The notes under the pieces are model-generated. The model ran no database searches and was not told the origin of the DNA. It saw only the letters and a list, made by a program, of their open reading frames with translations. Positions 6,939 to 15,530 of a stretch of 64,000 nucleotides of DNA are shown one piece after another; position 1 is the stretch's first letter, and every line of letters begins with the position of its first letter. This stretch comes from a virus. Both the position numbers and the translations under genes were made by a program. The DNA is taken from positions 1 through 64,000 of the IMG/VR virus record IMGVR_UViG_3300030202_003023; one strand, given 5' to 3'.

Positions 6939-7943
6939 ATGTATGGAAAAAGAGAGCTTACAATAGAAAACGTTAGAAATAGAGTTAATAGCTTTGATTT
7001 GTTTTCTTACTATTGTTCAACTTTTAAAGATATAAACGTAAGATTTTGCAGTGAATTAAGAGATGATAAATATCCAACATGCTGTATATATGCTTATAGT
7101 AATAAACTTTTCTATAAAGACTTTGCAACGGGTGATTCTTATGATGATATTGGGTATATTAAGGCAAAATATAATGTAGATTTTTTTACAGCTTTAGCCT
7201 ATATTAATAGAGATTTTAATTTAGATTTATGTGCAAAAACTTTAGAAGGAACTCCTACAATGCAGTTCTTTGGAGTACCAGATAAATCAATTAATCTTAA
7301 AAAATACATAAAGGAAACGTCTGTTATAAAAGTACAGGTAAGACAGTGGGGAGAAGAAGACAAATCTTTTTGGAAAAATAAATATGACTTTACTTCAAAA
7401 CAACTTAATTTTTACAAAGTATATCCAATAAAATTCTTTTGGATAAATGAAATAATGTATAGTTGTAAAAAGAACAGTTACGGTTATTATTTAGGAAATA
7501 GACAAGGTATTGCAAGATGGAAAATATATCAACCTTTGCAGCCTAGAGAAAGTAAATGGTTTTCAAATATAAATAGAGAAGACGTACAAGGAGTTACTCA
7601 ATTACCAGAAACAGGAGACACTCTATACATAACTTCAAGCTTAAAAGACATCATAGTTTTACGTAAACTTGGATTAAGTGCCGTTGCACCAAGTGCAGAA
7701 ACTACTATCATACCAGAAGATATTATCACTATGCTGAAAATAAGATTTAAAAAGCTAGTTATTTTCTATGATAATGATAATCCAGGTATAGTTGCTTCAA
7801 ATAAGCATTCAAAAATATATGGAGCAAGTGAAATATGTATACCTTTTAAACATTTATCTGAAAGCATAAAAGACCCAAGTGACTTTGTTGAAAAATACGG
7901 TTACGAGAAACTTTTAAATGTTATAAAAACAGAAGAAAAATGA
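6939..7943 (+). CDS. DNA primase (TOPRIM, crAss-like)
   Basis: Degenerate Zn-ribbon (CSELRDDKYPTC), YKDFATG, ITSSLKD, YDND..G, KDPSD. Confidence 0.88.
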   Translation: MYGKRELTIENVRNRVNSFDLFSYYCSTFKDINVRFCSELRDDKYPTCCIYAYSNKLFYKDFATGDSYDDIGYIKAKYNVDFFTALAYINRDFNLDLCAKTLEGTPTMQFFGVPDKSINLKKYIKETSVIKVQVRQWGEEDKSFWKNKYDFTSKQLNFYKVYPIKFFWINEIMYSCKKNSYGYYLGNRQGIARWKIYQPLQPRESKWFSNINREDVQGVTQLPETGDTLYITSSLKDIIVLRKLGLSAVAPSAETTIIPEDIITMLKIRFKKLVIFYDNDNPGIVASNKHSKIYGASEICIPFKHLSESIKDPSDFVEKYGYEKLLNVIKTEEK

Positions 7944-8083
7944 ACGAAAAACAAAAAGAAATATCACCAGCAGAAAAAATAATAGCATTATTTTTACACT
8001 TGAAAAAAACTATTCCAAATGATAGAGAGTTTGGTACAAAAATGCGTTCTGTAATGGATGCATTATTAGAAAAGAAAGCATAA
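7940..8083 (+). CDS. small hypothetical protein, 47 aa (MNEKQKEISPAEK...), not in the ORF track
   Basis: ATGA overlap with the primase stop and TAATG overlap with the next gene. Confidence 0.65.
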   Translation: MNEKQKEISPAEKIIALFLHLKKTIPNDREFGTKMRSVMDALLEKKA

Positions 8084-8457
8084 TGATATTTATAAGTGGA
8101 AATGTTCCAAGTAGTAAAAATAGCAAGCAATGGACAGGTCGTATGCTTATAAAATCAAAGACCACCTTGCGCTATGAAAAAGCTACTAAGGAGCAGTGGG
8201 AAGAAAACAAAGAAACATTCCTAAAATTGATTGATGGTAAGACCGTACCATATCAAATAGGATTTTATTTTGTGAGGGGAACTAGACATAAATATGATTG
8301 GGTTAATCCTGTTCAAACTATACAAGACTTAATGGTACGTTATGAGTGGTTAGAAGATGATAACATCACTATAATGTATCCAAAGCCTTTTAAAATAAAA
8401 GGTAAAATGGGACACTATGATAAAGGATGTCCTGGAGTATATATTAAAGTCTTTTAA
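8083..8457 (+). CDS. RusA-like Holliday junction resolvase
   Basis: GNVPSSKNS start, D-W-V-N...D-LM...EDDN acidic motif, final beta strand GVYIKV. Confidence 0.7.
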   Translation: MIFISGNVPSSKNSKQWTGRMLIKSKTTLRYEKATKEQWEENKETFLKLIDGKTVPYQIGFYFVRGTRHKYDWVNPVQTIQDLMVRYEWLEDDNITIMYPKPFKIKGKMGHYDKGCPGVYIKVF

Positions 8458-8681: not shown

Positions 8682-8706
8682 TTATTTAATTTTAAATTTT
8701 ATTACA

Positions 8707-8934
8707 ATGAGAAAAGTTACTGTAGTATCTACCGCAACAGGTGGAAAGAATGAAGTTTTATCAAGTGCAACTACTTGGGGAGAATTAAAAGGTCAAATCT
8801 CTGAATATATGACAGGTGAAATGAAAGTTACTGTTAGAGAAACTAGAAATGATTTATCTAATGCAGATGCAATTTTACCTGAAGGTGATTTCACTTTATT
8901 CTTATTCCCTGTAAAAGTTAAGTCAGGTAGATAA
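8707..8934 (+). CDS. ubiquitin-like (beta-grasp) protein, 75 aa, C-terminus ...FPVKVKSG-R
   Basis: Likely true start is ATG 8707. Beta-beta-alpha pattern (KVTVV...EVL...TTWGELK), then LPEGDFTLFL strand and penultimate Gly; upstream of E2/JAB/E1 genes. Confidence 0.8.
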   Translation: MRKVTVVSTATGGKNEVLSSATTWGELKGQISEYMTGEMKVTVRETRNDLSNADAILPEGDFTLFLFPVKVKSGR

Positions 8935-9089
8935 TGGCTAAGAAAAAGAACAAAGTTACTGTTACACATCCTTTTTCTTCTGTAGAAGAGCACTACAAAC
9001 ATTTACAAAAAAAGTATGATACTTATTTTAATGAGCGCTTAGAAAAACTAGAAGAAATAGGAAAAGAACTTCGTGCAGATATTAATTAA
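8934..9089 (+). CDS. small hypothetical protein, 51 aa (MAKKKNKVTVTHPF...), not in the ORF track
   Basis: TAATG coupling to the Ubl stop; ends just before a hairpin terminator. Confidence 0.65.
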   Translation: MAKKKNKVTVTHPFSSVEEHYKHLQKKYDTYFNERLEKLEEIGKELRADIN

Positions 9090-9098
9090 ATCAATAAT

Positions 9099-9130
9099 AA
9101 GAGAGGGCTACATGTCCTCTCTTTAATTTT
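9099..9130 (+). terminator. Rho-independent terminator between the Ubl genes and E2/JAB/E1
   Basis: AAGAGAGGGC-tacat-GTCCTCTCTT stem followed by TAATTTT. Confidence 0.65.
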
Positions 9131-9136
9131 AAATTT

Positions 9137-10354
9137 ATGGGAGAAGCAGAAGATGAATTTGCAGAAGCAGAAGCATTATTACAACAGCTGCAATCAGAAG
9201 AAGAACAAAGAGAAATTCAAGCACAGCAAGAAGTTGAAGTTATTGAACTTAATGATACCAATACAATGGAAATTGCACCAATACAACCAGTAGTAAAAGA
9301 AGAGCCAAAAGACACAGATGTTATAGCTTTTTTGAATAAACGCGTTACTGAAATGGCAACATTGTTAAACGCTATATATCCAGACAATTGGCACATATAC
9401 AGAAACCAAGAGTATATAAAACAAAATCCGTTTTTAAACAAGGTTATAACTGATGATGAATATCACACTAATCATACAATAATTGCAATTAGATTTCCTG
9501 AAATAACTATTACTAACACTAGAGGACATAGTAATGTAATTAAAGATTTATTTGTGTTTATGAGCATGTGTATTTATAAAGGTTCAGCACCTGAAAGTGA
9601 AGCTATTATTATGTTTGATAGTAGAATGTGTGGTACTAGATCAACTTTAAGAGAAGAAGAGTTTAATAGTAATTATATACATTCTCATCTTCCTAGACGT
9701 ACTTCATCTAGCAGTGTAGAAAAACCATATACAGCTAATGTAAATGTTAGTTATTTTTGTTTAGGTGGAGGTACTGAAACATCTGCAGCTTTAGCTGATT
9801 TAAATTACAATTTTGATATACTAAAGTTTGAATTGTTTTTATATCAGTTGTCTACGTATGTTACGCATGAAAGCTTAGGAGGCGGTCCTTACATTAGAAT
9901 GGATAGTATAAGAATGGGATCAGGGCCTAGATTTAGTTCAGAAAATAACAATAGTTGTAAAAGTACATTTTTTCACTATGTTGATAAACTTGATTCTTTT
10001 CCTCTTAAATCTTGTGTTAAAGATGGAGAAAACGCACTTGTGTATGATGAAAACAACGAAGAGCATTTAAAAGTGCTAGGTAAACTAACTGATTACCCTT
10101 ATGAAAGGCTTGAAAATAACAGATTAGTTCCTTTTACTGAAAATGTAATAACTAAAACTGAAGAACAAATTAAAGAATTAGAAGGATTGATGTTTGATTT
10201 TAGGGGTGAATCAGTATTTTTTAAAATAACACCTTATCCTAAATCTACAATAAAAAACCCTATTAAGTATCCTTCAAACAAGTTGTTGTCTTATATATCT
10301 TCTTGTATTAATAATAATATTAAAACATTTAATTCATTGCTTTATGCAGAATAA
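9137..10354 (+). CDS. prokaryotic E2/UBC-like conjugating enzyme (divergent)
   Basis: I-R-F-P-E strand, YIHSHLP (H182/H184) and FCLG (Cys208), resembling the E2 HPN/H...C signature; context with Ubl, JAB and E1. Confidence 0.6.
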   Translation: MGEAEDEFAEAEALLQQLQSEEEQREIQAQQEVEVIELNDTNTMEIAPIQPVVKEEPKDTDVIAFLNKRVTEMATLLNAIYPDNWHIYRNQEYIKQNPFLNKVITDDEYHTNHTIIAIRFPEITITNTRGHSNVIKDLFVFMSMCIYKGSAPESEAIIMFDSRMCGTRSTLREEEFNSNYIHSHLPRRTSSSSVEKPYTANVNVSYFCLGGGTETSAALADLNYNFDILKFELFLYQLSTYVTHESLGGGPYIRMDSIRMGSGPRFSSENNNSCKSTFFHYVDKLDSFPLKSCVKDGENALVYDENNEEHLKVLGKLTDYPYERLENNRLVPFTENVITKTEEQIKELEGLMFDFRGESVFFKITPYPKSTIKNPIKYPSNKLLSYISSCINNNIKTFNSLLYAE

Positions 10355-11486
10355 AAAAATTTTAAAAAAGTATGAAGAGCATACTTTACCAGAAAATTCT
10401 ACTATCATATTAAGTCAGAATTTATTAGACCAAGTAGACTACTTACATAAAGTAGTTGGAAAAGTAGAATGGAGTGGTGTACTTGTTTATAGAACTATAC
10501 AAGGCTCTATTGAAAACTATAAAAAGTTTGTAGTAGAAGCTGTAGAAATTCTTCCTATGGATGTAGGTACATCAGGATACACTGAATATGAAATAGAAGC
10601 AGCAGATGAGTATGTGTTTAAAAACTTACTTGAAAGAGTAATGCTAGATGATGATTTAAAAATAGGTCATATACATACACATCATGGTATGGATTGCTTC
10701 TTTTCAGGTACAGATATGTCAGAGTTGCATGAAAATGCTCCTAATCACAACTACTATCTGTCTTTGATTGTTAATTTTCAAGACTACACTAATTGGAAAG
10801 CTAAGATTGCACAGATTAAAACAATGAAAACAAAAGGTTCTGCAGTGTATTCTTACAAAGGTACTAATGGTACAGTTGAAGAAAAAGTATCATTAAATGG
10901 TGAAAAAGAAATTATGTCTTTGATTAATTTAAAGATAGAGCCTGAAACTACTTTAGAAGATGAGTTTATAAAAAGAGTTAAGGAACTTAAAACAGAACAA
11001 GATAAGTTTGTTAAACAAAAGCCTTTGACAGGTAACACTGATTGGACTGGTTATTACGGTAAGCCTACTGAACAAGCTACTTTGTTTGATGTACTTAATG
11101 AAAGCCTTGCTCCTGATTCTGATGACTTGTCACGTGTTTTTGTAGATGTTTCTGAAGAAAGTATAACTATGTTTTCTTTAAAGCTTCTTGCTCAATCTAC
11201 TGAACCTTTAGGTAGTTTAGAAAATACTTTAAATGTTTTAGACCAAGCTTTTTTAAGTGAGGAATACGGTGCTATGGATTACTATATGGAAACTATAGTG
11301 GATAATTTTGATGCGTTGTATTTAGAGCATTTTAAAACTACACCTTCTACAGTATCTAAAAAACTTGTTGTTGAAAAAGTAGCTGAAGTTTTAGAGAAAT
11401 TTGAAGAAAAACATAATTACACATCAGCTTTAGTTGAAACTACAATTGACACACTAAGGCTAGATCTTATTTTAGAACAAGAATAA
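10344..11486 (+). CDS. JAB/MPN (JAMM) metalloprotease with long acidic C-terminal extension
   Basis: E42 (VEWSG) ... H111-x-H113-x7-S121-xx-D124 (HTHHGMDCFFSGTD). Confidence 0.9.
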   Translation: MQNKKILKKYEEHTLPENSTIILSQNLLDQVDYLHKVVGKVEWSGVLVYRTIQGSIENYKKFVVEAVEILPMDVGTSGYTEYEIEAADEYVFKNLLERVMLDDDLKIGHIHTHHGMDCFFSGTDMSELHENAPNHNYYLSLIVNFQDYTNWKAKIAQIKTMKTKGSAVYSYKGTNGTVEEKVSLNGEKEIMSLINLKIEPETTLEDEFIKRVKELKTEQDKFVKQKPLTGNTDWTGYYGKPTEQATLFDVLNESLAPDSDDLSRVFVDVSEESITMFSLKLLAQSTEPLGSLENTLNVLDQAFLSEEYGAMDYYMETIVDNFDALYLEHFKTTPSTVSKKLVVEKVAEVLEKFEEKHNYTSALVETTIDTLRLDLILEQE

Positions 11487-11499
11487 AAAATAAAAAAAA

Positions 11500-12237
11500 A
11501 TGGAAGATACAAATCAAATGGTTTCTATTGAAGGCGTAAATACAAATGAAAATGAAATAAATCTGAATCCTAGACATGCTAGGTTTTCAGATTTAATGTG
11601 GTATGATTCTAATAATCCTCCTCACGCACTTGTTGGTGGCGTGGGAGGTATAGGTTCTTGGCTATCTTTTTTACTAGGTAGAATGGGTTGTCATCTTTAT
11701 TTGTTTGATAATGATGAAATTGATGAGACAAATATGGGAGGACAGCTGTACCAACCTTCTCAGATTGGTATGACTAAAGTAGAAGCTGCACATCTAAATA
11801 TCTATAATTTTACTGGTAACAGTGATATAGAGACTTTTAGCAAGTACACTGAAGAATCAGAGTTTTGTCCTATAACATTTTCTTGCTTTGATAATATGAA
11901 ATCAAGAAAGATTATGTTTGATATATGGGCAAATAGCCATGACGGTAATGGTATTTTCATTGACGGTAGAATGCTTGCAGAGTCTTTTCAGATTTATGCA
12001 GTACTTCCTGGAAGTGAAGATAAGTACAGAGAAACGTTATTTGATGATAGTGAAGTTGAAGAGCAACCGTGTTCTGCAAAAGCAACTTCACATACTGCAG
12101 CTATGATTTCAAGCATGATGGTAGGTATATTTACAAACTATTTATCTAATATAAAAACAGAAATGAATATTAGAGAAGTTCCGTTTTTTACCAGCTTTGA
12201 AACACATTTACTAATGCTTAATTTGGAATTACAATGA
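11500..12237 (+). CDS. ThiF/MoeB/E1-like activating enzyme
   Basis: VGGVGGIGS nucleotide-binding loop, FDNDEIDETN..Q, TK, DN...R, DGRM, candidate catalytic Cys191 (QPCSAK). Confidence 0.92.
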   Translation: MEDTNQMVSIEGVNTNENEINLNPRHARFSDLMWYDSNNPPHALVGGVGGIGSWLSFLLGRMGCHLYLFDNDEIDETNMGGQLYQPSQIGMTKVEAAHLNIYNFTGNSDIETFSKYTEESEFCPITFSCFDNMKSRKIMFDIWANSHDGNGIFIDGRMLAESFQIYAVLPGSEDKYRETLFDDSEVEEQPCSAKATSHTAAMISSMMVGIFTNYLSNIKTEMNIREVPFFTSFETHLLMLNLELQ

Positions 12238-13271
12238 ATATTGATTTTAGTGATAAAAGACCTGAGCAATTAGTAGATGATTCAGGCAAGTTCTCAAATT
12301 TATTTACTTTTAACTTAGATAGAACCTCATATTTAAGGCATTTAACTATAAAAACATCTGATTATGTACCTTTGTATTCATTGGGGTTTTTTAAACCTGC
12401 ACGTGATTACAGTGTGATGCATTCTAGTAGATTTATTGGGTATAATGATTTTACTGAAATTACAAAAAACTATTTAGTTAAAATTAAATACTATAAAAAA
12501 CAAGACGGTCAGATAAAAAACAGTATAATAAATAGATTTCTTGATAATAATATTGGTTCACATGATTGGTATGTATTAAGGGGTGAGTATTCTTCTAAAG
12601 AATTTAATTTAGAGTTAATTGACAAAGAGATAGAAATACATAAGGAGAATTTAAAAGAAGTAAAGGAAAAATTACTCTGCAATTCATCTTCTTTGTCTCT
12701 TGGTAATATATACCCAATGTATGGAAGGGCTTCTTATTCTAATGTTTTTAATAGTGTTAATGGATTAGGACGTGGTTATTATGGATCAAATCTTTTTACA
12801 AGCGCTGCACATTCTTTAAGAAATGCAGATTATTTAACTAACCTTGGATTTACAGCAAAATTTAATTCTAATAATATAGAAGTTCTTTTTTCTTATATGG
12901 TAAAAGTAGAAATGATTCCTTATATTAGATTATGTATGCTCTTAGGAGAAGAGCCTCATCCAGACAGTTTAGAATTATGGGTTAATGATACATTAGATGT
13001 ACCTAGAGGCCCACATAAAAACATACGTCCAAGATACCGTAAAGAAGTTAAACTTTTTGCAGAAAGTAGAGGCATTAAAATAGAAGAATCTTCTAATTTA
13101 AATGCAGACATTTTTAAGTCATATAAGTTACCAACTTTTAAAAATATGGTAGAAAGAAGACAGTGGTATAATTTTATAGGCAGCGCTGTTTTAAATGGGA
13201 TGAAAAAAAGCAGAAATGGAGACGGTTTTAAAATAAAAGGCGATAAAAAAACAATTAAATTAAAATTATGA
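12234..13271 (+). CDS. hypothetical protein, 345 aa, translationally coupled to E1
   Basis: ATGA overlap with the E1 stop; no motif recognised. Confidence 0.75.
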   Translation: MNIDFSDKRPEQLVDDSGKFSNLFTFNLDRTSYLRHLTIKTSDYVPLYSLGFFKPARDYSVMHSSRFIGYNDFTEITKNYLVKIKYYKKQDGQIKNSIINRFLDNNIGSHDWYVLRGEYSSKEFNLELIDKEIEIHKENLKEVKEKLLCNSSSLSLGNIYPMYGRASYSNVFNSVNGLGRGYYGSNLFTSAAHSLRNADYLTNLGFTAKFNSNNIEVLFSYMVKVEMIPYIRLCMLLGEEPHPDSLELWVNDTLDVPRGPHKNIRPRYRKEVKLFAESRGIKIEESSNLNADIFKSYKLPTFKNMVERRQWYNFIGSAVLNGMKKSRNGDGFKIKGDKKTIKLKL

Positions 13272-14026
13272 GCAAAACATTGTTAATAGATGGAGATTCT
13301 TTGATGTACTATGAAGCTTTTAAAGAACAATCAGAAGAGAAGGCTATAGAAAGTATAAATAAAAGACTCTTATACATGTGTGAGCAAAACAGTGCTGATA
13401 GATATCTTGGATTTTTGACTAAAGGTAGTTGTTTTAGATATAAAGTAGCAAAATCAAAAGGCTATAAAGAGTCAAGACCAAGAGAAAAACCAAAACTTCT
13501 TTTACAATTAAGGGATTATTTACAAAACACACTTAAGTTTGAGATAGTACCACAACTAGAAGCAGATGATTTAGTCTGTTATTGGAATAATCAATTAGAA
13601 GAGGAGACAATTATTTGTTCTCCTGATAAAGATGTTTTGAAACAAATACCAGGAAAGCATTATAATTATAGATGGACAACAAAAACTAGAGGTTGCTGGG
13701 TTACTACTTCTGAAAAAGACGCTGAAAAATTCTTATGGCAGCAAGTCTTAATGGGAGATTCTACAGATTCTATACCAGGATTACCTGGAGTAGGAGAAAA
13801 GACAGCACTTAAGATTCTTGAGAATAAAGAATCACCTCTAAGTGGTTGTGATAAAACTTATAGTGCACTAGTACTGGGGGAGTACGTTAAAGCATTTGGA
13901 ATATCTGAAGGTATAAGCAGGTTTGCTGAGACTTTTAAATTAGTATATATGCTACGTACTCCAGAAGACGTGAAGAGAGAAACTGATTTGGTGCTAGAAA
14001 AGCCCCAGATTAAGTTATTGAGGTAG
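13268..14026 (+). CDS. 5'-3' exonuclease / flap endonuclease
   Basis: LLIDGD, YK..R, LEADD, SPDKD, GDSTDSIPGLPGVGEKTA (H3TH). Confidence 0.92.
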   Translation: MSKTLLIDGDSLMYYEAFKEQSEEKAIESINKRLLYMCEQNSADRYLGFLTKGSCFRYKVAKSKGYKESRPREKPKLLLQLRDYLQNTLKFEIVPQLEADDLVCYWNNQLEEETIICSPDKDVLKQIPGKHYNYRWTTKTRGCWVTTSEKDAEKFLWQQVLMGDSTDSIPGLPGVGEKTALKILENKESPLSGCDKTYSALVLGEYVKAFGISEGISRFAETFKLVYMLRTPEDVKRETDLVLEKPQIKLLR

Positions 14027-14043
14027 AATTTTTTATAAAAATT

Positions 14044-14841
14044 ATGACTAGTACTATAAAATGTGATAAAGTGGGAAAAGTAGTAACTGTTAAAGTATAT
14101 TCATCTAGACAGTTACACCTTCTTCCAATTTATAAAGGAGGAGAAGTTTATGACGACAAAGGAAACCTTGTAGAAATAAACTATGATGATGAATTTTTAG
14201 TAAAAGTAGGAGAAACGGTTTCTATTAAAAGACATAAATATAAAATACAGAAAATTACTAAGATGGTTAGCTTAGAAGGTATTCATGTATCAGGTTATTA
14301 CTTGCATACATCTACTTTAAGCAAATCTTCTATGTTTGTGTTTCCTTTGTTAGGCTATACTCGTACTTTTTTTGAATGGAATTCTAGTTTTATAAACTCT
14401 TTTATATGGAAAGAAGGCGGTGAAGAAGGTAGGTTTATTTATTTATGGTATAAATTTGTACCATCTTTAGAGATGGAAGAATTTGAAGAAAAGCTAAAAA
14501 ATAATATAAACTTTATAGATGCAGAAGATGTTGATGATTATCATGTATTGTATAGATTTATGGTTCCTGAAAAATTTGAAAAAGATTATGATAAAATTAT
14601 AAAAGGAAAATACTCTTACATTACAGAAAGTGCAAAAGAACGTATACTTGATTTTCATTTTTCTAGTCCAGACAGACCTATAGGTAAAATACTTTATAGA
14701 GATCCTGAAAGAAGAGAAAAGATGGAAAAAGAGTTAGGAATTAAAATTCCTGAAGAGCAGGATTTGCATGATCCATTTTATAAAGAAGAAGATACTTTCT
14801 TTAATAGGTATAAAATAATAAAATCAAGACTTGGATGGTAA
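14044..14841 (+). CDS. hypothetical protein, 265 aa
   Basis: Long ORF in operon. Confidence 0.75.
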   Translation: MTSTIKCDKVGKVVTVKVYSSRQLHLLPIYKGGEVYDDKGNLVEINYDDEFLVKVGETVSIKRHKYKIQKITKMVSLEGIHVSGYYLHTSTLSKSSMFVFPLLGYTRTFFEWNSSFINSFIWKEGGEEGRFIYLWYKFVPSLEMEEFEEKLKNNINFIDAEDVDDYHVLYRFMVPEKFEKDYDKIIKGKYSYITESAKERILDFHFSSPDRPIGKILYRDPERREKMEKELGIKIPEEQDLHDPFYKEEDTFFNRYKIIKSRLGW

Positions 14842-15530
14842 AAAAAGAAAATTTTGAACCATTGATGGACATTGGCTGGCTAGAACATCTCTGGCCAGCT
14901 TTGTCTTCATCAAAAATGAAGAGCAACTATGCTCTCATTAGTAATGAAAAGAAGAAAGGGTATCATATATTTCCTAAGTATACAGATACTTTTAATGCGT
15001 TTAAGTATACTCCTTGGAATAAAGTAAGAGTAGTTATACTTGGACAAGATCCTTATCACACAACAGGTATGGCACATGGATTAGCTTTCTCTACACAGAG
15101 TGATCTTACACCACCATCTCTAAGAAACATATTAAAAGAAGTAGAAGATGACGTGTATGAAGGCTTTAACTTACAGAGAAGCGTAACAAATGATTTAACT
15201 AGTTGGGCTGAACAAGGTGTTTTACTTTTAAATACAGCTTTAACAGTTAAGTTAGGGTGGCCAGGCAGTCATTTGCACCACTGGGAAGATTTTACTGCAC
15301 ATACTTTAAAAGAATTAAGTAGGTGGAAAAGCGGTGTAGTATATTTGTTGTGGGGAGCAAAGGCACAAGGATTTAAAAAATACATTAATACAAAACAAAA
15401 CCATGTTTTAGAGACAACACATCCGTCTCCTTTTTCTGCACATAAAGGGTTTTTAGGATGTAAGCACTTTTCTAAGACAAATGAGATATTACGGAATATG
15501 AACGGAAAAGAAGAAGAAATTGTATGGTAA
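14835..15530 (+). CDS. ung: uracil-DNA glycosylase, family 1
   Basis: GQDPYH, AHGLAFS, PPSLRNI, QGVLLLN, LLWG, HPSPFS. Confidence 0.96.
   Translation: MVKKENFEPLMDIGWLEHLWPALSSSKMKSNYALISNEKKKGYHIFPKYTDTFNAFKYTPWNKVRVVILGQDPYHTTGMAHGLAFSTQSDLTPPSLRNILKEVEDDVYEGFNLQRSVTNDLTSWAEQGVLLLNTALTVKLGWPGSHLHHWEDFTAHTLKELSRWKSGVVYLLWGAKAQGFKKYINTKQNHVLETTHPSPFSAHKGFLGCKHFSKTNEILRNMNGKEEEIVW

Follow-up and report, generated by a model that had tools for sequence, protein, structure and literature searches.

The 64,000-nt stretch of DNA analysed here (the window) comes from a marine crAss-like phage, and among its DNA-replication genes, on the plus strand, stands a cassette that appears to encode a Bil/Bub-type pathway for the activation and conjugation of a ubiquitin-like protein (Ubl), expressed with the replication genes. 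Judging from the sequence, we give this reading slightly better than an even chance. Work on such a kit has so far been confined to cells and to the defence of bacteria against phages, and here it is borne by a phage; our literature search found no paper describing the phage cassette. Every open reading frame claimed in the first-pass annotation was present at its coordinates on the plus strand, which confirmed the observation, and the interpretation built on it was supported in part: the E1, the JAB protease, the capped glycine of the Ubl and the linkage of the genes stood, but the E2 fold and the beta-grasp fold did not. Because these two folds lack firm support, the terms "complete" cassette and "minimal ubiquitination machinery" were premature. 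The genes and their neighbours are the following:

6939-7943: primase, upstream of the cassette
8083-8457: RusA, upstream of the cassette
8707-8934, plus strand: Ubl precursor, 75 aa; its start is an internal ATG of the 8614 ORF
8934-9089, plus strand: 51-aa ORF, helical and charged; overlaps the Ubl stop as TAATG
9137-10354, plus strand: 405-aa protein, candidate Ubl carrier ("E2c")
10344-11486, plus strand: 380-aa JAB protein; 11-nt overlap with the 405-aa gene
11500-12237, plus strand: 245-aa ThiF/E1-type protein; 13-nt gap after the JAB gene
12234-13271, plus strand: 345-aa protein; 4-nt overlaps with the E1 gene and with the exonuclease gene
13268-14026: 5'-3' exonuclease, downstream of the cassette
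14835-15530: 231-aa ORF, UDG by position only, downstream of the cassette

The 231-aa ORF is called UDG because its relatives occupy the position that GenBank annotates as uracil-DNA glycosylase. The tight, co-directional packing inside the replication module, as described earlier, was upheld, and the linkage is conserved across related phage loci. The order Ubl, 405-aa protein, JAB and E1, next to the primase, was kept in 81-82 of 82 loci, so the arrangement is not due to chance, and the 405-aa gene was found between the Ubl and JAB genes in every locus. The cassette is virtually absent from cellular genomes, with one phage-like contig among 185,579 species genomes.

The 245-aa protein is solidly predicted to be a single-domain ThiF/E1 adenylating enzyme. 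In line with the earlier claim of a ThiF-type E1, it matched Pfam ThiF at 2.2e-17 (63.5 bits, cut-off 28.1), and its profile matched 63 solved E1/ThiF-family sequences in the PDB, with UBA5 as the best (2.2e-14), followed by MccB (~2e-12), PaaA (7e-12), ThiF, UBA3, MoeB and Cap2. Within the GxGGxG motif (47-52), G47, G49 and G50 were invariant, as were D72, N78, Q82, K93, D131, R136 and R157, and the claimed C191 was found in 51 of 52 relatives, the exception being a truncated ORF. Equally solid is the assignment, from its residues, of an intact JAB/MPN+ motif to the 380-aa protein, which consists of an N-terminal JAB/MPN+ (JAMM) metalloprotease domain (approximately residues 15-170) and a variable, helical C-terminal half. 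The JAMM residues E42, H111, H113, S121 and D124, already reported as intact, were invariant in 60/60 aligned relatives, and 55 of 60 JAB family members matched Prok-JAB (best 3.3e-6). The nearest solved structures were CSN5 (0.0064), Rpn11-like, JAMM1 and AMSH, and for the top matches (CSN5, Rpn11 and JAMM1) the alignment covered the HxH..S..D stretch.

The 75-aa protein ends in VKVKSGR, where Gly74 is the conserved domain end and Arg75 a cap. The SG-R end had been noted before, and the glycine was present in 81/81 relatives, at the end of the Ubl domain in all of them and as the last residue in none. It is followed by 1-4 residues in 12/81, by 5-30 in 3/81 and by a fused tail of more than 30 in 66/81, the longest tail having 267 residues; these tails are acidic and helical. 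In most relatives, the Ubl is thus the N-terminal domain of a longer protein, a fact overlooked by the earlier reader. Of the claim that this protein is beta-grasp-like, the capped glycine end held, but not the fold: Pfam ThiS matched 0/61 family members, the PDB profile search gave spurious matches only, and hhalign against ThiS/MoaD gave 54-56 colinear columns with z = 2.2, a weak similarity. The hhalign score was no higher than that of unrelated controls; a long colinear alignment was obtained with ThiS only. The protein also matched PHROG 15560 at 9.6e-11, and a feature search of the Atlas pointed, as a lead, to a neighbour cluster with ThiS in 14% of its members (score 0.89). Taken together, the 75-aa protein appears to behave as a ubiquitin-like precursor.

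The 51-aa ORF, which the earlier annotation did not list, corresponds in detached form to the tail that most relatives carry fused to the Ubl. Among the loci with a short-tailed Ubl, 10/14 (window included) carry an ORF of 30-81 aa after the Ubl gene and before that of the 405-aa protein, and the small ORFs of loci L019 and L027 resembled the fused tails when judged by eye; as a jackhmmer query, the 51-aa ORF matched 0/82 loci. The 345-aa protein, immediately downstream of the E1 in 39/82 loci, is fast-evolving: its alignment (29 sequences) showed no invariant column, and Pfam and PDB searches gave no match. It is a possible fifth component, coupled to the E1 gene by the 4-nt overlap.

The 405-aa protein has a conserved core at about residues 110-260, with the motifs Y-x-H-S-H (180-184), F-C-L-G-x-G (207-212) and ESLGGGPY (245-252). 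The HSH at 182-184 and the FCLG with Cys208 were present as previously described; H184 and C208 were found in 82/82 members (72 distinct sequences) and S183 in 81/82, and N127, G210, E245, S246, G249 and P251 were also found in 82/82. The family comprises 3188 representative clusters at E<=1e-3. The distance between His and Cys ranges over 11-29 residues, which exceeds the canonical HPN-to-Cys spacing of E2s. The UBC/E2 fold proposed earlier for this protein was unsupported. Pfam E2 families matched 0/21 and 0/82 members, the NCBIfam E2 search 0/82, and PADLOC gave 0 matches for E2; no NCBIfam, Pfam or PDB match of any kind was obtained (0 PDB profiles). Against 30 archaeal UBC sequences, hhalign gave z = -0.9, and 122/150 shuffles scored equally well. 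The Atlas model had a pLDDT of 0.31 and was uninformative. The sole profile match of the core above controls was PRTRC-B / Prok-E2_D, local to 17-21 columns on the C-L-G Cys motif, with a score of 19.7 (z = 3.2) that was reached by 2/120 shuffles. In addition, the crude pattern of helix, four strands, His, Cys and helix resembles that of archaeal UBC. On these sequence features, the 405-aa protein is a probable but unproven carrier enzyme.

The favoured pathway begins with three steps that are taken as shown by the sequence: a Ubl made with Gly74 capped (by Arg75 here, in relatives by tails as long as 267 residues), a JAB/JAMM metalloprotease with a complete active-site motif, always two genes downstream of the Ubl, and next to it a ThiF-type E1 with its nucleotide-binding motif intact and Cys191 conserved. 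Cleavage by the JAB protease after Gly74 would then expose the glycine and, in relatives, free the tail protein. The E1 would adenylate Gly74 with ATP, and the Ubl would probably then form a thioester on Cys191, from which it could pass to the invariant Cys208 of the 405-aa protein, assisted by His184, and on to lysines of phage or host proteins. The JAB protease may in addition undo the tagging. The detached tail encoded by the 51-aa ORF is a conserved partner, as is the 345-aa protein. By analogy, the gene order counts for this reading, as it equals the Ubl-E2-DUB-E1 order of Bil in its published outline, and so does the always-capped glycine, as in Type II BilA by its description. The E1 and JAB matches, the invariant H184 and C208 with the local PRTRC-B match, and the absence of sulfur-relay genes from the phage record also count for it. 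Against it count the 405-aa protein, with no E2/UBC fold match and a wide His-to-Cys spacing, the unproven beta-grasp fold of the Ubl, and the E1, which is minimal (245 aa), unlike the multidomain BilD of the same outline.

Three candidate signals were found in the intergenic sequences:

8686-8699, plus strand: 14-mer TTAATTTTAAATTT, first copy, with 7 nt between it and the Ubl ATG downstream
9099-9123, plus strand: hairpin with a 10-bp stem, then an A/T-rich run, located after the 51-aa ORF and before the 405-aa gene
9123-9136, plus strand: second exact copy of the 14-mer, abutting the ATG of the 405-aa gene

These are the two exact copies of the 14-mer in the 64 kb. With up to one mismatch, it had 6 matches where 1.16 were expected, a number reached by 0/100 shuffles, and the copies are a possible shared promoter or translation signal. 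The hairpin (-15.7 kcal/mol, z = -5.45) folded better than all shuffles (0/200 as good) and scored as terminator-like, such sites numbering 2 in the region with 2.1 expected; it is possibly an attenuator or a terminator.

It is unlikely, though with several points in its favour, that the product is instead a sulfur carrier, in which a ThiS/MoaD-type Ubl would be uncapped at Gly74 by the JAB protease and adenylated by the ThiF-like E1 to give a thiocarboxylate, and the 405-aa Cys/His protein would consume this sulfur or hand it on, e.g., for the thiolation of a nucleotide, a tRNA or a base of the DNA in the course of replication. JAB uncapping of a sulfur-carrier glycine has precedents in QbsE/QbsD and CysO/Mec+. 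The E1 has the size of ThiF/MoeB (245 aa), its best NCBIfam matches were ThiF models, all ThiF/MoeB models being far below their cut-offs, and its gene is named "thiamine biosynthesis protein ThiF" in GenBank. For the Ubl, ThiS/MoaD gave the one remote similarity that was colinear, its Atlas neighbour cluster is 14% ThiS, and the cassette is placed among nucleotide and DNA enzymes. However, rhodanese, cysteine desulfurase and PP-loop ATPase genes were absent from the 89.7-kb phage record, where the ThiF positive control was recovered; this agrees with the earlier statement that the window lacks genes for thiamine, molybdopterin or cysteine synthesis, though host enzymes could serve. Moreover, the Ubl terminus is S-G (A-G in some), whereas it was G-G in 30/30 archaeal ThiS/MoaD sequences. 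The long fused tails (66/81) and the invariant-Cys protein in every locus fit conjugation better, and the gene order is that of Bil as outlined in its reports.

We consider it quite improbable that the cassette serves processing only, with the Ubl serving as a handle by which the acidic tail protein is folded or delivered, the JAB protease merely freeing the tail, and the E1 and 405-aa protein only regulating or acting on something else. The fusion of more than 30 residues in 66/81 relatives and the separate small ORF where the Ubl is unfused agree with it, and release of a Ubl domain by JAB at its last glycine has been proposed for TAPI/TAPK, in the part of the survey that treats them (Iyer et al. 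2006, PMC1779556). Nevertheless, 81/82 loci encode an E1 whose adenylation residues are intact and whose Cys is conserved, which counts against this explanation because pure processing leaves the E1 without a role; and the cap is one residue in the window and 1-4 residues in 12/81 relatives, so there is nothing substantial to deliver. Finally, it is very improbable that the E1 acts as MccB or PaaA in a RiPP-like modification of a peptide C-terminus (Ubl or tail), giving a bioactive product for host takeover: these are among the best solved relatives of its profile (~2e-12 and 7e-12), but the matches are confined to the Rossmann core that these enzymes share (profile positions 18-102), the scores of UBA5 and canonical E1s are equal or better, and in place of a short leader-core peptide the substrate would be a globular, conserved domain of 75 aa that has a JAB partner.

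Compared with known systems, the cassette resembles ThiS/MoaD with ThiF/MoeB in pairing a small carrier that has a Gly at its C-terminus with an adenylating enzyme of ~250 aa and ThiF type, but its one Gly is capped where those carriers have a free Gly-Gly, and it always includes the JAB protease and the invariant-Cys partner, and lacks sulfur-relay genes. The lambda/T1 tail-assembly proteins I (Ubl plus C-terminal domain) and K (JAB plus NlpC/P60), as summarised in PMC1779556, likewise combine a phage Ubl, a conserved end Gly, a C-terminal fusion and a JAB encoded nearby; in that summary, they come without an E1 or Cys/His carrier protein and belong to the tail module, not the replication module. 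PRTRC (ParB-related, ThiF-related cassette), listed from plasmids and conjugative elements in row 6d of Iyer et al. 2006 (PMC1779556), is described there as a mobile-element set of a small Ubl-like protein, an E2-like protein (PRTRC-B / Prok-E2_D), a JAB, a ThiF-type E1 and a fast-evolving extra protein, and the phage E1 weakly matches TIGR03736 (38.9 bits, cut-off 144.75). By the same description, the conserved His of PRTRC-B is downstream of the Cys, whereas that of the 405-aa protein is upstream, and the phage cassette has no ParB.

Type I Bub (BubAB, BubCD and BubE; formerly 6E.1), in the published summary, fuses the Ubl to the E2 and the JAB to the E1, and it has no catalytic cysteines (Tyr on the E1, Ser on the E2), whereas the phage genes are all separate, the Ubl partner is an acidic helical tail, and both cysteines (Cys191 and Cys208) are kept; among the proteins of the window, none with DUF6527 was seen. 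Nonetheless, BubAB is reported to be cut by its JAB domain (Ye et al. 2024, PMC11601596), and Bub in that account shares with the phage cassette a Ubl fusion cut after the last Ubl Gly (a predicted cut in the phage), a fifth conserved protein beside Ubl, E2, JAB and E1, and an invariant Ser-His pair in the candidate carrier (S183 81/82 and H184 82/82 in the 405-aa protein). BilABCD (Type I/II), as its reports outline it, resides in bacterial defence islands, whereas the phage cassette is in the replication module of lytic-type phages; the Bil E1 is IAD-AAD-CYS and not a 245-aa single domain, Type II BilA tails reach up to nine residues and not 267, and in the 405-aa protein, which matched no E2 model, the His precedes the Cys. 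PADLOC gave no Bil-type match in the phage. The Bil E2 was itself initially unrecognised, as a "CEHH" protein with conserved Cys and His (Chambers et al., bioRxiv 10.1101/2023.09.26.559546; summary PMC11601596), and BilC is described as cleaving Type II BilA after the Ubl Gly (Chambers et al., bioRxiv 10.1101/2023.09.26.559546). In these accounts, Bil shares with the phage cassette the order Ubl, E2, JAB, E1, a system without an E3, and a universally conserved Ubl Gly followed by extra residues, which a JAB peptidase takes off in Bil and would take off in the phage.

Six co-directional ORFs make up the cassette, and they lie at the coordinates named by the first-pass annotation, one of them being a 51-aa ORF that was absent from its list:

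8707-8934, + strand: Ubl gene, 75 aa, ending in KVKSGR; the start is an internal ATG of an ORF listed from 8614
8934-9089, + strand: 51-aa ORF, whose ATG overlaps the Ubl stop codon as TAATG
9137-10354, + strand: gene for the 405-aa protein, the candidate Ubl carrier
10344-11486, + strand: gene for the 380-aa JAB protein, with an 11-nt overlap with the 405-aa protein gene
11500-12237, + strand: gene for the 245-aa E1
12234-13271, + strand: gene for the 345-aa protein, with a 4-nt overlap on either side

On the 5' side, the cassette is preceded by genes for a DnaG-type primase and a RusA-like resolvase, and on the 3' side it is followed by a 5'-3' exonuclease gene and an ORF annotated as uracil-DNA glycosylase in relatives. 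The source record is 89,735 bases long, with an estimated completeness of 87% (IMG/VR), and the 15 sequencing runs listed for the sequence are all labelled as marine or viral metagenome DNA; the two with the best matches may represent the sample of origin. Two non-coding elements were also observed. An exact 14-mer, TTAATTTTAAATTT, occurs at 8686-8699, just 5' of the Ubl ATG, and again at 9123-9136, abutting the ATG of the 405-aa protein gene; when up to one mismatch was allowed, the window contained 6 matches (1.16 expected), and a role as phage promoter or translation signal is possible. A stable hairpin at 9099-9123 (-15.7 kcal/mol, z = -5.45), with an A/T-rich run after it, separates the 51-aa ORF from the enzyme genes, and this hairpin could keep Ubl and its tail in excess over the enzymes.

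The best-supported reading of this locus is a phage-carried pathway resembling Bil and Bub, Ubl systems of bacterial host defense. In such a pathway, JAB would cut Ubl after Gly74, and E1 would then adenylate this Gly, probably followed by thioester formation at Cys191. JAB may reverse the tagging as well.

The distribution of the cassette was analyzed in 82 loci, i.e., the best 80 of 160 confirmed IMG/VR matches (187 pattern hits) to the 405-aa protein, and two GenBank phages added via E1, cr111_1 (Crassvirales, Steigviridae) and Flavobacterium phage FpV4; the 405-aa protein gene is present by construction in the 80 IMG/VR loci. JAB was found in all 82 loci, Ubl and E1 in 81 each, the primase in 78, and the 345-aa protein, for which HMM searches gave nothing useful, in 39. 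The single Ubl miss and the single E1 miss were each cut by a contig end. The order Ubl, 405-aa protein, JAB, and E1 was always kept. In GenBank phages, E1 was found in 79 records (29 from Flavobacterium, 29 from Bacteroides, 12 uncultured, and others) and the 405-aa protein in 39, including DAC15, DAC17, and a Kolpuevirus; a megablast of the cassette against GenBank phages gave no match. Cultured carriers include Bacteroides phages DAC15 and DAC17, relatives whose annotation follows the crAss001 reference, and the FpV phages of Flavobacterium psychrophilum. It had been suspected that ThiF and JAB genes were already annotated individually, and this was the case, as the GenBank labels on cassette genes read 'thiamine biosynthesis protein', 'contains metalloprotease domain', or 'hypothetical protein', the last being the name of the 405-aa protein in every annotated GenBank record among those listed. 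Our literature searches turned up no published description of the cassette, and the supplementary gene tables that accompany papers on crAss-like phages may name ThiF or metalloprotease, as the GenBank notes do.

When one genome from each of 185,579 prokaryotic species was searched, one relative was obtained; this search used a single peptide pattern, which divergent cellular relatives could escape. That sole match, L086, is a contig of 41,565 bases (CAZEMX010000008.1) from a MAG labelled as a Nitrososphaerota archaeon, and it carries primase, UDG, Ubl, 405-aa protein, JAB, and E1 genes in the phage order. It resembles a contig from a crAss-like phage that ended up in an archaeal MAG during binning, and not a set of archaeal genes. 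E2 genes of the eukaryotic UQ_con type, having HPNF with a Cys close by, were observed in loci L089-L118 (genomes G071-G402), and UQ_con passed the Pfam cut-off in 65 of the 401 genomes sampled from the phylum of the Nitrososphaerota-labelled MAG.

The 75-aa Ubl indeed ends in SG-R, as first annotated, and the Gly at the domain end was conserved in 81/81 related loci, being the sole invariant column of 61 aligned domains. This terminal Gly is single (S-G or A-G) and never the C-terminus. Among the 81 relatives, it is followed by 1-4 residues in 12, 5-30 in 3, and more than 30 in 66, with a maximum of 267; the window Ubl, with its one-Arg cap, is therefore a minority form. The conserved residue fits the activated Gly of Ub/ThiS/MoaD-type modifiers, and its activation here is putative. 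Searches of Ubl against HMM libraries and solved structures retrieved no recognized family (Pfam ThiS, 0/61), and the Pfam and PDB matches to collagen adhesin, pilin, quinolinate synthase, and coiled coils were judged spurious. With hhalign, Ubl and 30 archaeal ThiS/MoaD sequences were colinear over 54-56 columns, at a score of only 13.9 (z = 2.2, equaled by 2/150 column shuffles), and the C-terminal strand of Ubl was paired with the DGD-x-(V/I)-x-PP strand of ThiS. Moreover, ThiS was carried by 14% of the members of an Atlas cluster neighboring Ubl (score 0.89). Altogether, the sequence evidence for a putative beta-grasp fold is weak.

In most relatives, the segment behind the Ubl Gly is a fused tail, and these tails (loci L004-L082, e.g., L026:5291-5665, L035:5269-5685, and L034:5141-5758) tend to carry a near-terminal Gly, with typical ends such as ...AREARELGY, ...AKMFG, and ...EELGM. 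Of the 58 distinct tails with a length of 50 aa or more, 35 had a Gly among their final 4 residues, against a null mean of 8.5 and a maximum of 18 in 1000 draws, and the final 30 residues contained on average 25% Asp plus Glu. The near-terminal Gly might belong to a docking motif or be, like that of Ubl, a capped Gly. The tails gave nothing useful against Pfam, and an early impression of a SAP/HeH-like helix pair at the start of some of them was dropped, as it was not supported by this search. Where the cap is short, 10 of 14 loci, including the window, have an acidic helical ORF of 30-81 aa between the Ubl gene and the gene that follows. By eye, the intervening ORFs of two of the related loci, L019 and L027, look like the fused tails of other phages, and the 51-aa ORF of the window, which ends in ...ELRADIN without Gly, is similar to its counterpart in the closest relative, L003; a jackhmmer search with this ORF matched 0/82 loci. 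We read the 51-aa ORF as a detached tail. A further 291-aa ORF, with a GIY-YIG-like motif at its start (by eye), was observed at L019:4658-5533 between the Ubl gene and the detached tail ORF; its probable identity is a homing endonuclease, whose insertion would have separated the Ubl/tail pair.

These features of Ubl also bear on the possibility that the cassette is a sulfur-carrier pathway in place of protein conjugation. The phage Ubl end is a capped S-G, whereas a free G-G was present in all 30 fetched ThiS/MoaD sequences, and the long fused tails fit a sulfur carrier poorly. In addition, rhodanese, cysteine desulfurase, and PP-loop genes were not found in the record, in a search that recovered ThiF as a control. 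We regard this explanation as weakened, though sulfur could be supplied via host enzymes.

For the Bil/Bub-like pathway, the putative processing enzyme is the 380-aa protein. All five of its JAMM residues, previously described as intact, were unchanged in 60/60 relatives (Glu42, His111, His113, Ser121, and Asp124, in the motif E ... H-x-H-x(7)-S-x(2)-D). The window protein itself stayed below the Pfam curated cut-off (16.2-18.6 bits vs. 25), and the domains of 55 of the 60 relatives matched Pfam Prok-JAB at E<=0.1, with a best value of 3.3e-6. The top solved matches of the N-terminal-domain profile were CSN5 (0.0064), an Rpn11-like protein, Rpn11, JAMM1, and AMSH, aligned across the HxH...S..D stretch. 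The C-terminal half is variable and helical, and the full-length profile matched only designed helical bundles through this half; the N-terminal domain alone gave CSN5 and Rpn11. Judged from its sequence, the 380-aa protein has an N-terminal JAB/MPN+ domain.

The 245-aa protein scored 63.5 bits against Pfam ThiF (PF00899; cut-off 28.1, E 2.2e-17) and was refound by a six-frame search of the record. A profile of 52 E1 relatives matched 63 solved E1/ThiF-family sequences at E<=0.001, the best being UBA5 (2.2e-14), followed by MccB, PaaA, ThiF, TcdA, UBA3, MoeB, SAE2, UBA1/6/7, Cap2, and Uba4. Gly47, Gly49, Gly50, Asp72, Asn78, Gln82, Lys93, Asp131, Arg136, and Arg157 were unchanged in the 52 sequences, and the catalytic roles of these individual residues are putative. 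Cys191, the candidate thioester Cys, was kept in 51/52, the exception being a truncated ORF. In E1 enzymes, the catalytic Cys of the crossover loop is required for the thioester, not for adenylation. The initial assignment as a ThiF-type E1 with a glycine-rich loop is upheld by a Pfam score above the cut-off and an invariant loop, and the Cys191 named there is nearly always conserved. Because none of the NCBIfam equivalogs (ThiF, MoeB, PRTRC ThiF, and TcdA) came near its cut-off, we consider this E1 a member of the superfamily and not of a named subfamily. A module for processing only, as for lambda tail-assembly proteins I and K, would leave this conserved E1 unexplained.

In the Bil/Bub-like pathway, the 405-aa protein would carry Ubl on Cys208 to targets. 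Its family comprised 3188 representative clusters at E<=1e-3, 2930 of them at E<=1e-10, among 1.84 billion representatives. Asn127, Ser183, His184, Cys208, Gly210, Glu245, and Gly249 were invariant in 82 representatives of the family, and in the 82 loci (72 distinct sequences) Asn127, His184, Cys208, Gly210, Glu245, Ser246, Gly249, and Pro251 were present in 82/82 and Ser183 in 81/82, with 11-29 residues between the His and the Cys. We infer that Cys208 is catalytic. A Bub-like nucleophile at Ser183 was considered instead and set aside as less likely, as this position is Pro in 1/82 and Cys208 is present in 82/82. The protein had been annotated as an E2: the HSH...FCLG motif with Cys208 is real, with His184 and Cys208 in every locus, but no sequence model of any E2 family was matched. 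Pfam E2 families matched 0/21 and 0/82 members, NCBIfam E2 families 0/82, and PADLOC 0; PDB profile searches gave 0 hits, and PF14457 was not found in the phage record. An hhalign comparison with the UBC reference set, 30 genuine archaeal E2s taken from a single phylum (65 of 401 genomes), gave z = -0.9, and the global mode aligned only 4 columns, a meaningless result. The sole signal above control was obtained with a 12-member PRTRC-B/Prok-E2_D profile (PRTRC-B being the E2-like protein of the PRTRC cassette of plasmids and conjugative elements), with a local match of 17-21 columns, a score of 19.7, and z = 3.2, equaled by 2/120 shuffles and centered on F-C-L-G-x-G against G-x-V-C-x-G. Single-sequence hhalign against PRTRC-B, PRTRC-C, and a neighboring 375-aa protein gave nothing significant. 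Iyer et al. 2006 (PMC1779556) treat UBC and PRTRC-B as one fold, and this accepted pair, our positive control, gave z = 0.58 only, so the negative profile-profile results carry little weight. A crude propensity profile of the 405-aa protein was compatible with a helix, four strands, a His loop, a Cys loop, and a helix, as in UBC; the Atlas model had a pLDDT of 0.31, and its neighbors were meaningless. The E2 reading is put forward from position, the invariant Cys and His, and analogy, and the family would be an E2 that has diverged very far or else a carrier with a new fold. An N-terminal acidic helix, MGE-x-EDEF-A-x-AEALL-x-x-L (window 9137-9200), was conserved in the closer relatives of the protein and is followed by 50-250 residues of hypervariable length; E1 or Ubl may dock on this helix.

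To our knowledge, ubiquitin-type conjugation in prokaryotes has so far been shown only for host defense systems (CBASS Cap2, Bil, and Bub). We tentatively propose, holding the idea to be somewhat more doubtful than secure, that a large clade of Bacteroidota phages, including crAss-like phages and phages of Bacteroides and Flavobacterium that are in culture, has Ubl tagging of its own during replication, with a carrier of a novel, virus-restricted His/Cys class of more than 3000 clusters, and with Ubl made as a fusion to an acidic tail that has a near-terminal Gly and is freed by the same cut. If this were true, ubiquitin-type conjugation would serve bacterial viruses as well as host defenses, and a possible role for the tail would be that of an adaptor or of a second substrate. 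A conjugation system encoded by a virus, and fixed beside the primase gene across so widespread a phage group, would turn the accustomed view around, with the phage tagging proteins; this tagging could organize replication, redirect host proteins, or blunt host Ubl-based defense. Since cultured phages carry the family, the question is directly testable at the bench.

Finally, the cassette was compared with the known systems. PRTRC is defined by its equivalog scores, ParB, and proteins A-F, a set that the cassette lacks; the ThiF equivalog TIGR03736 scored the phage E1 at 38.9 bits against a cut-off of 144.75, and the other PRTRC models gave no hit to the cassette proteins. With Type I Bub, in which, according to Ye et al. 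(PMC11601596), BubCD cleaves BubAB through its JAB domain, the sole common idea in the features described there is a Ubl made as a JAB-cleaved fusion. That system, as described, has Ubl-E2 and JAB-E1 fusions, a DUF6527 protease, and Ser/Tyr chemistry, whereas the phage genes are separate and conserve Cys191 and Cys208, and DUF6527 was not seen in Pfam scans of the cassette proteins. The E1 of BilABCD is multidomain, with inactive and active adenylation domains and a mobile Cys domain, unlike the 245-aa phage E1 with one ThiF domain, and BilABCD sits in defense islands, whereas the phage cassette does not. Because defining features of each system fail, we do not place the cassette within Bil, Bub, or PRTRC. 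According to Chambers et al. (bioRxiv 10.1101/2023.09.26.559546), Type II BilA has a capped Gly and is cut by BilC between Gly97 and Ala98, and the Bil E2 was first filed as an unknown 'CEHH' protein. BilABCD and the cassette have the same order of Ubl, E2, JAB, and E1, a capped conserved Gly, a JAB, and no E3, and, by analogy, BilABCD is the system among those compared that the phage cassette would most resemble in how it works.
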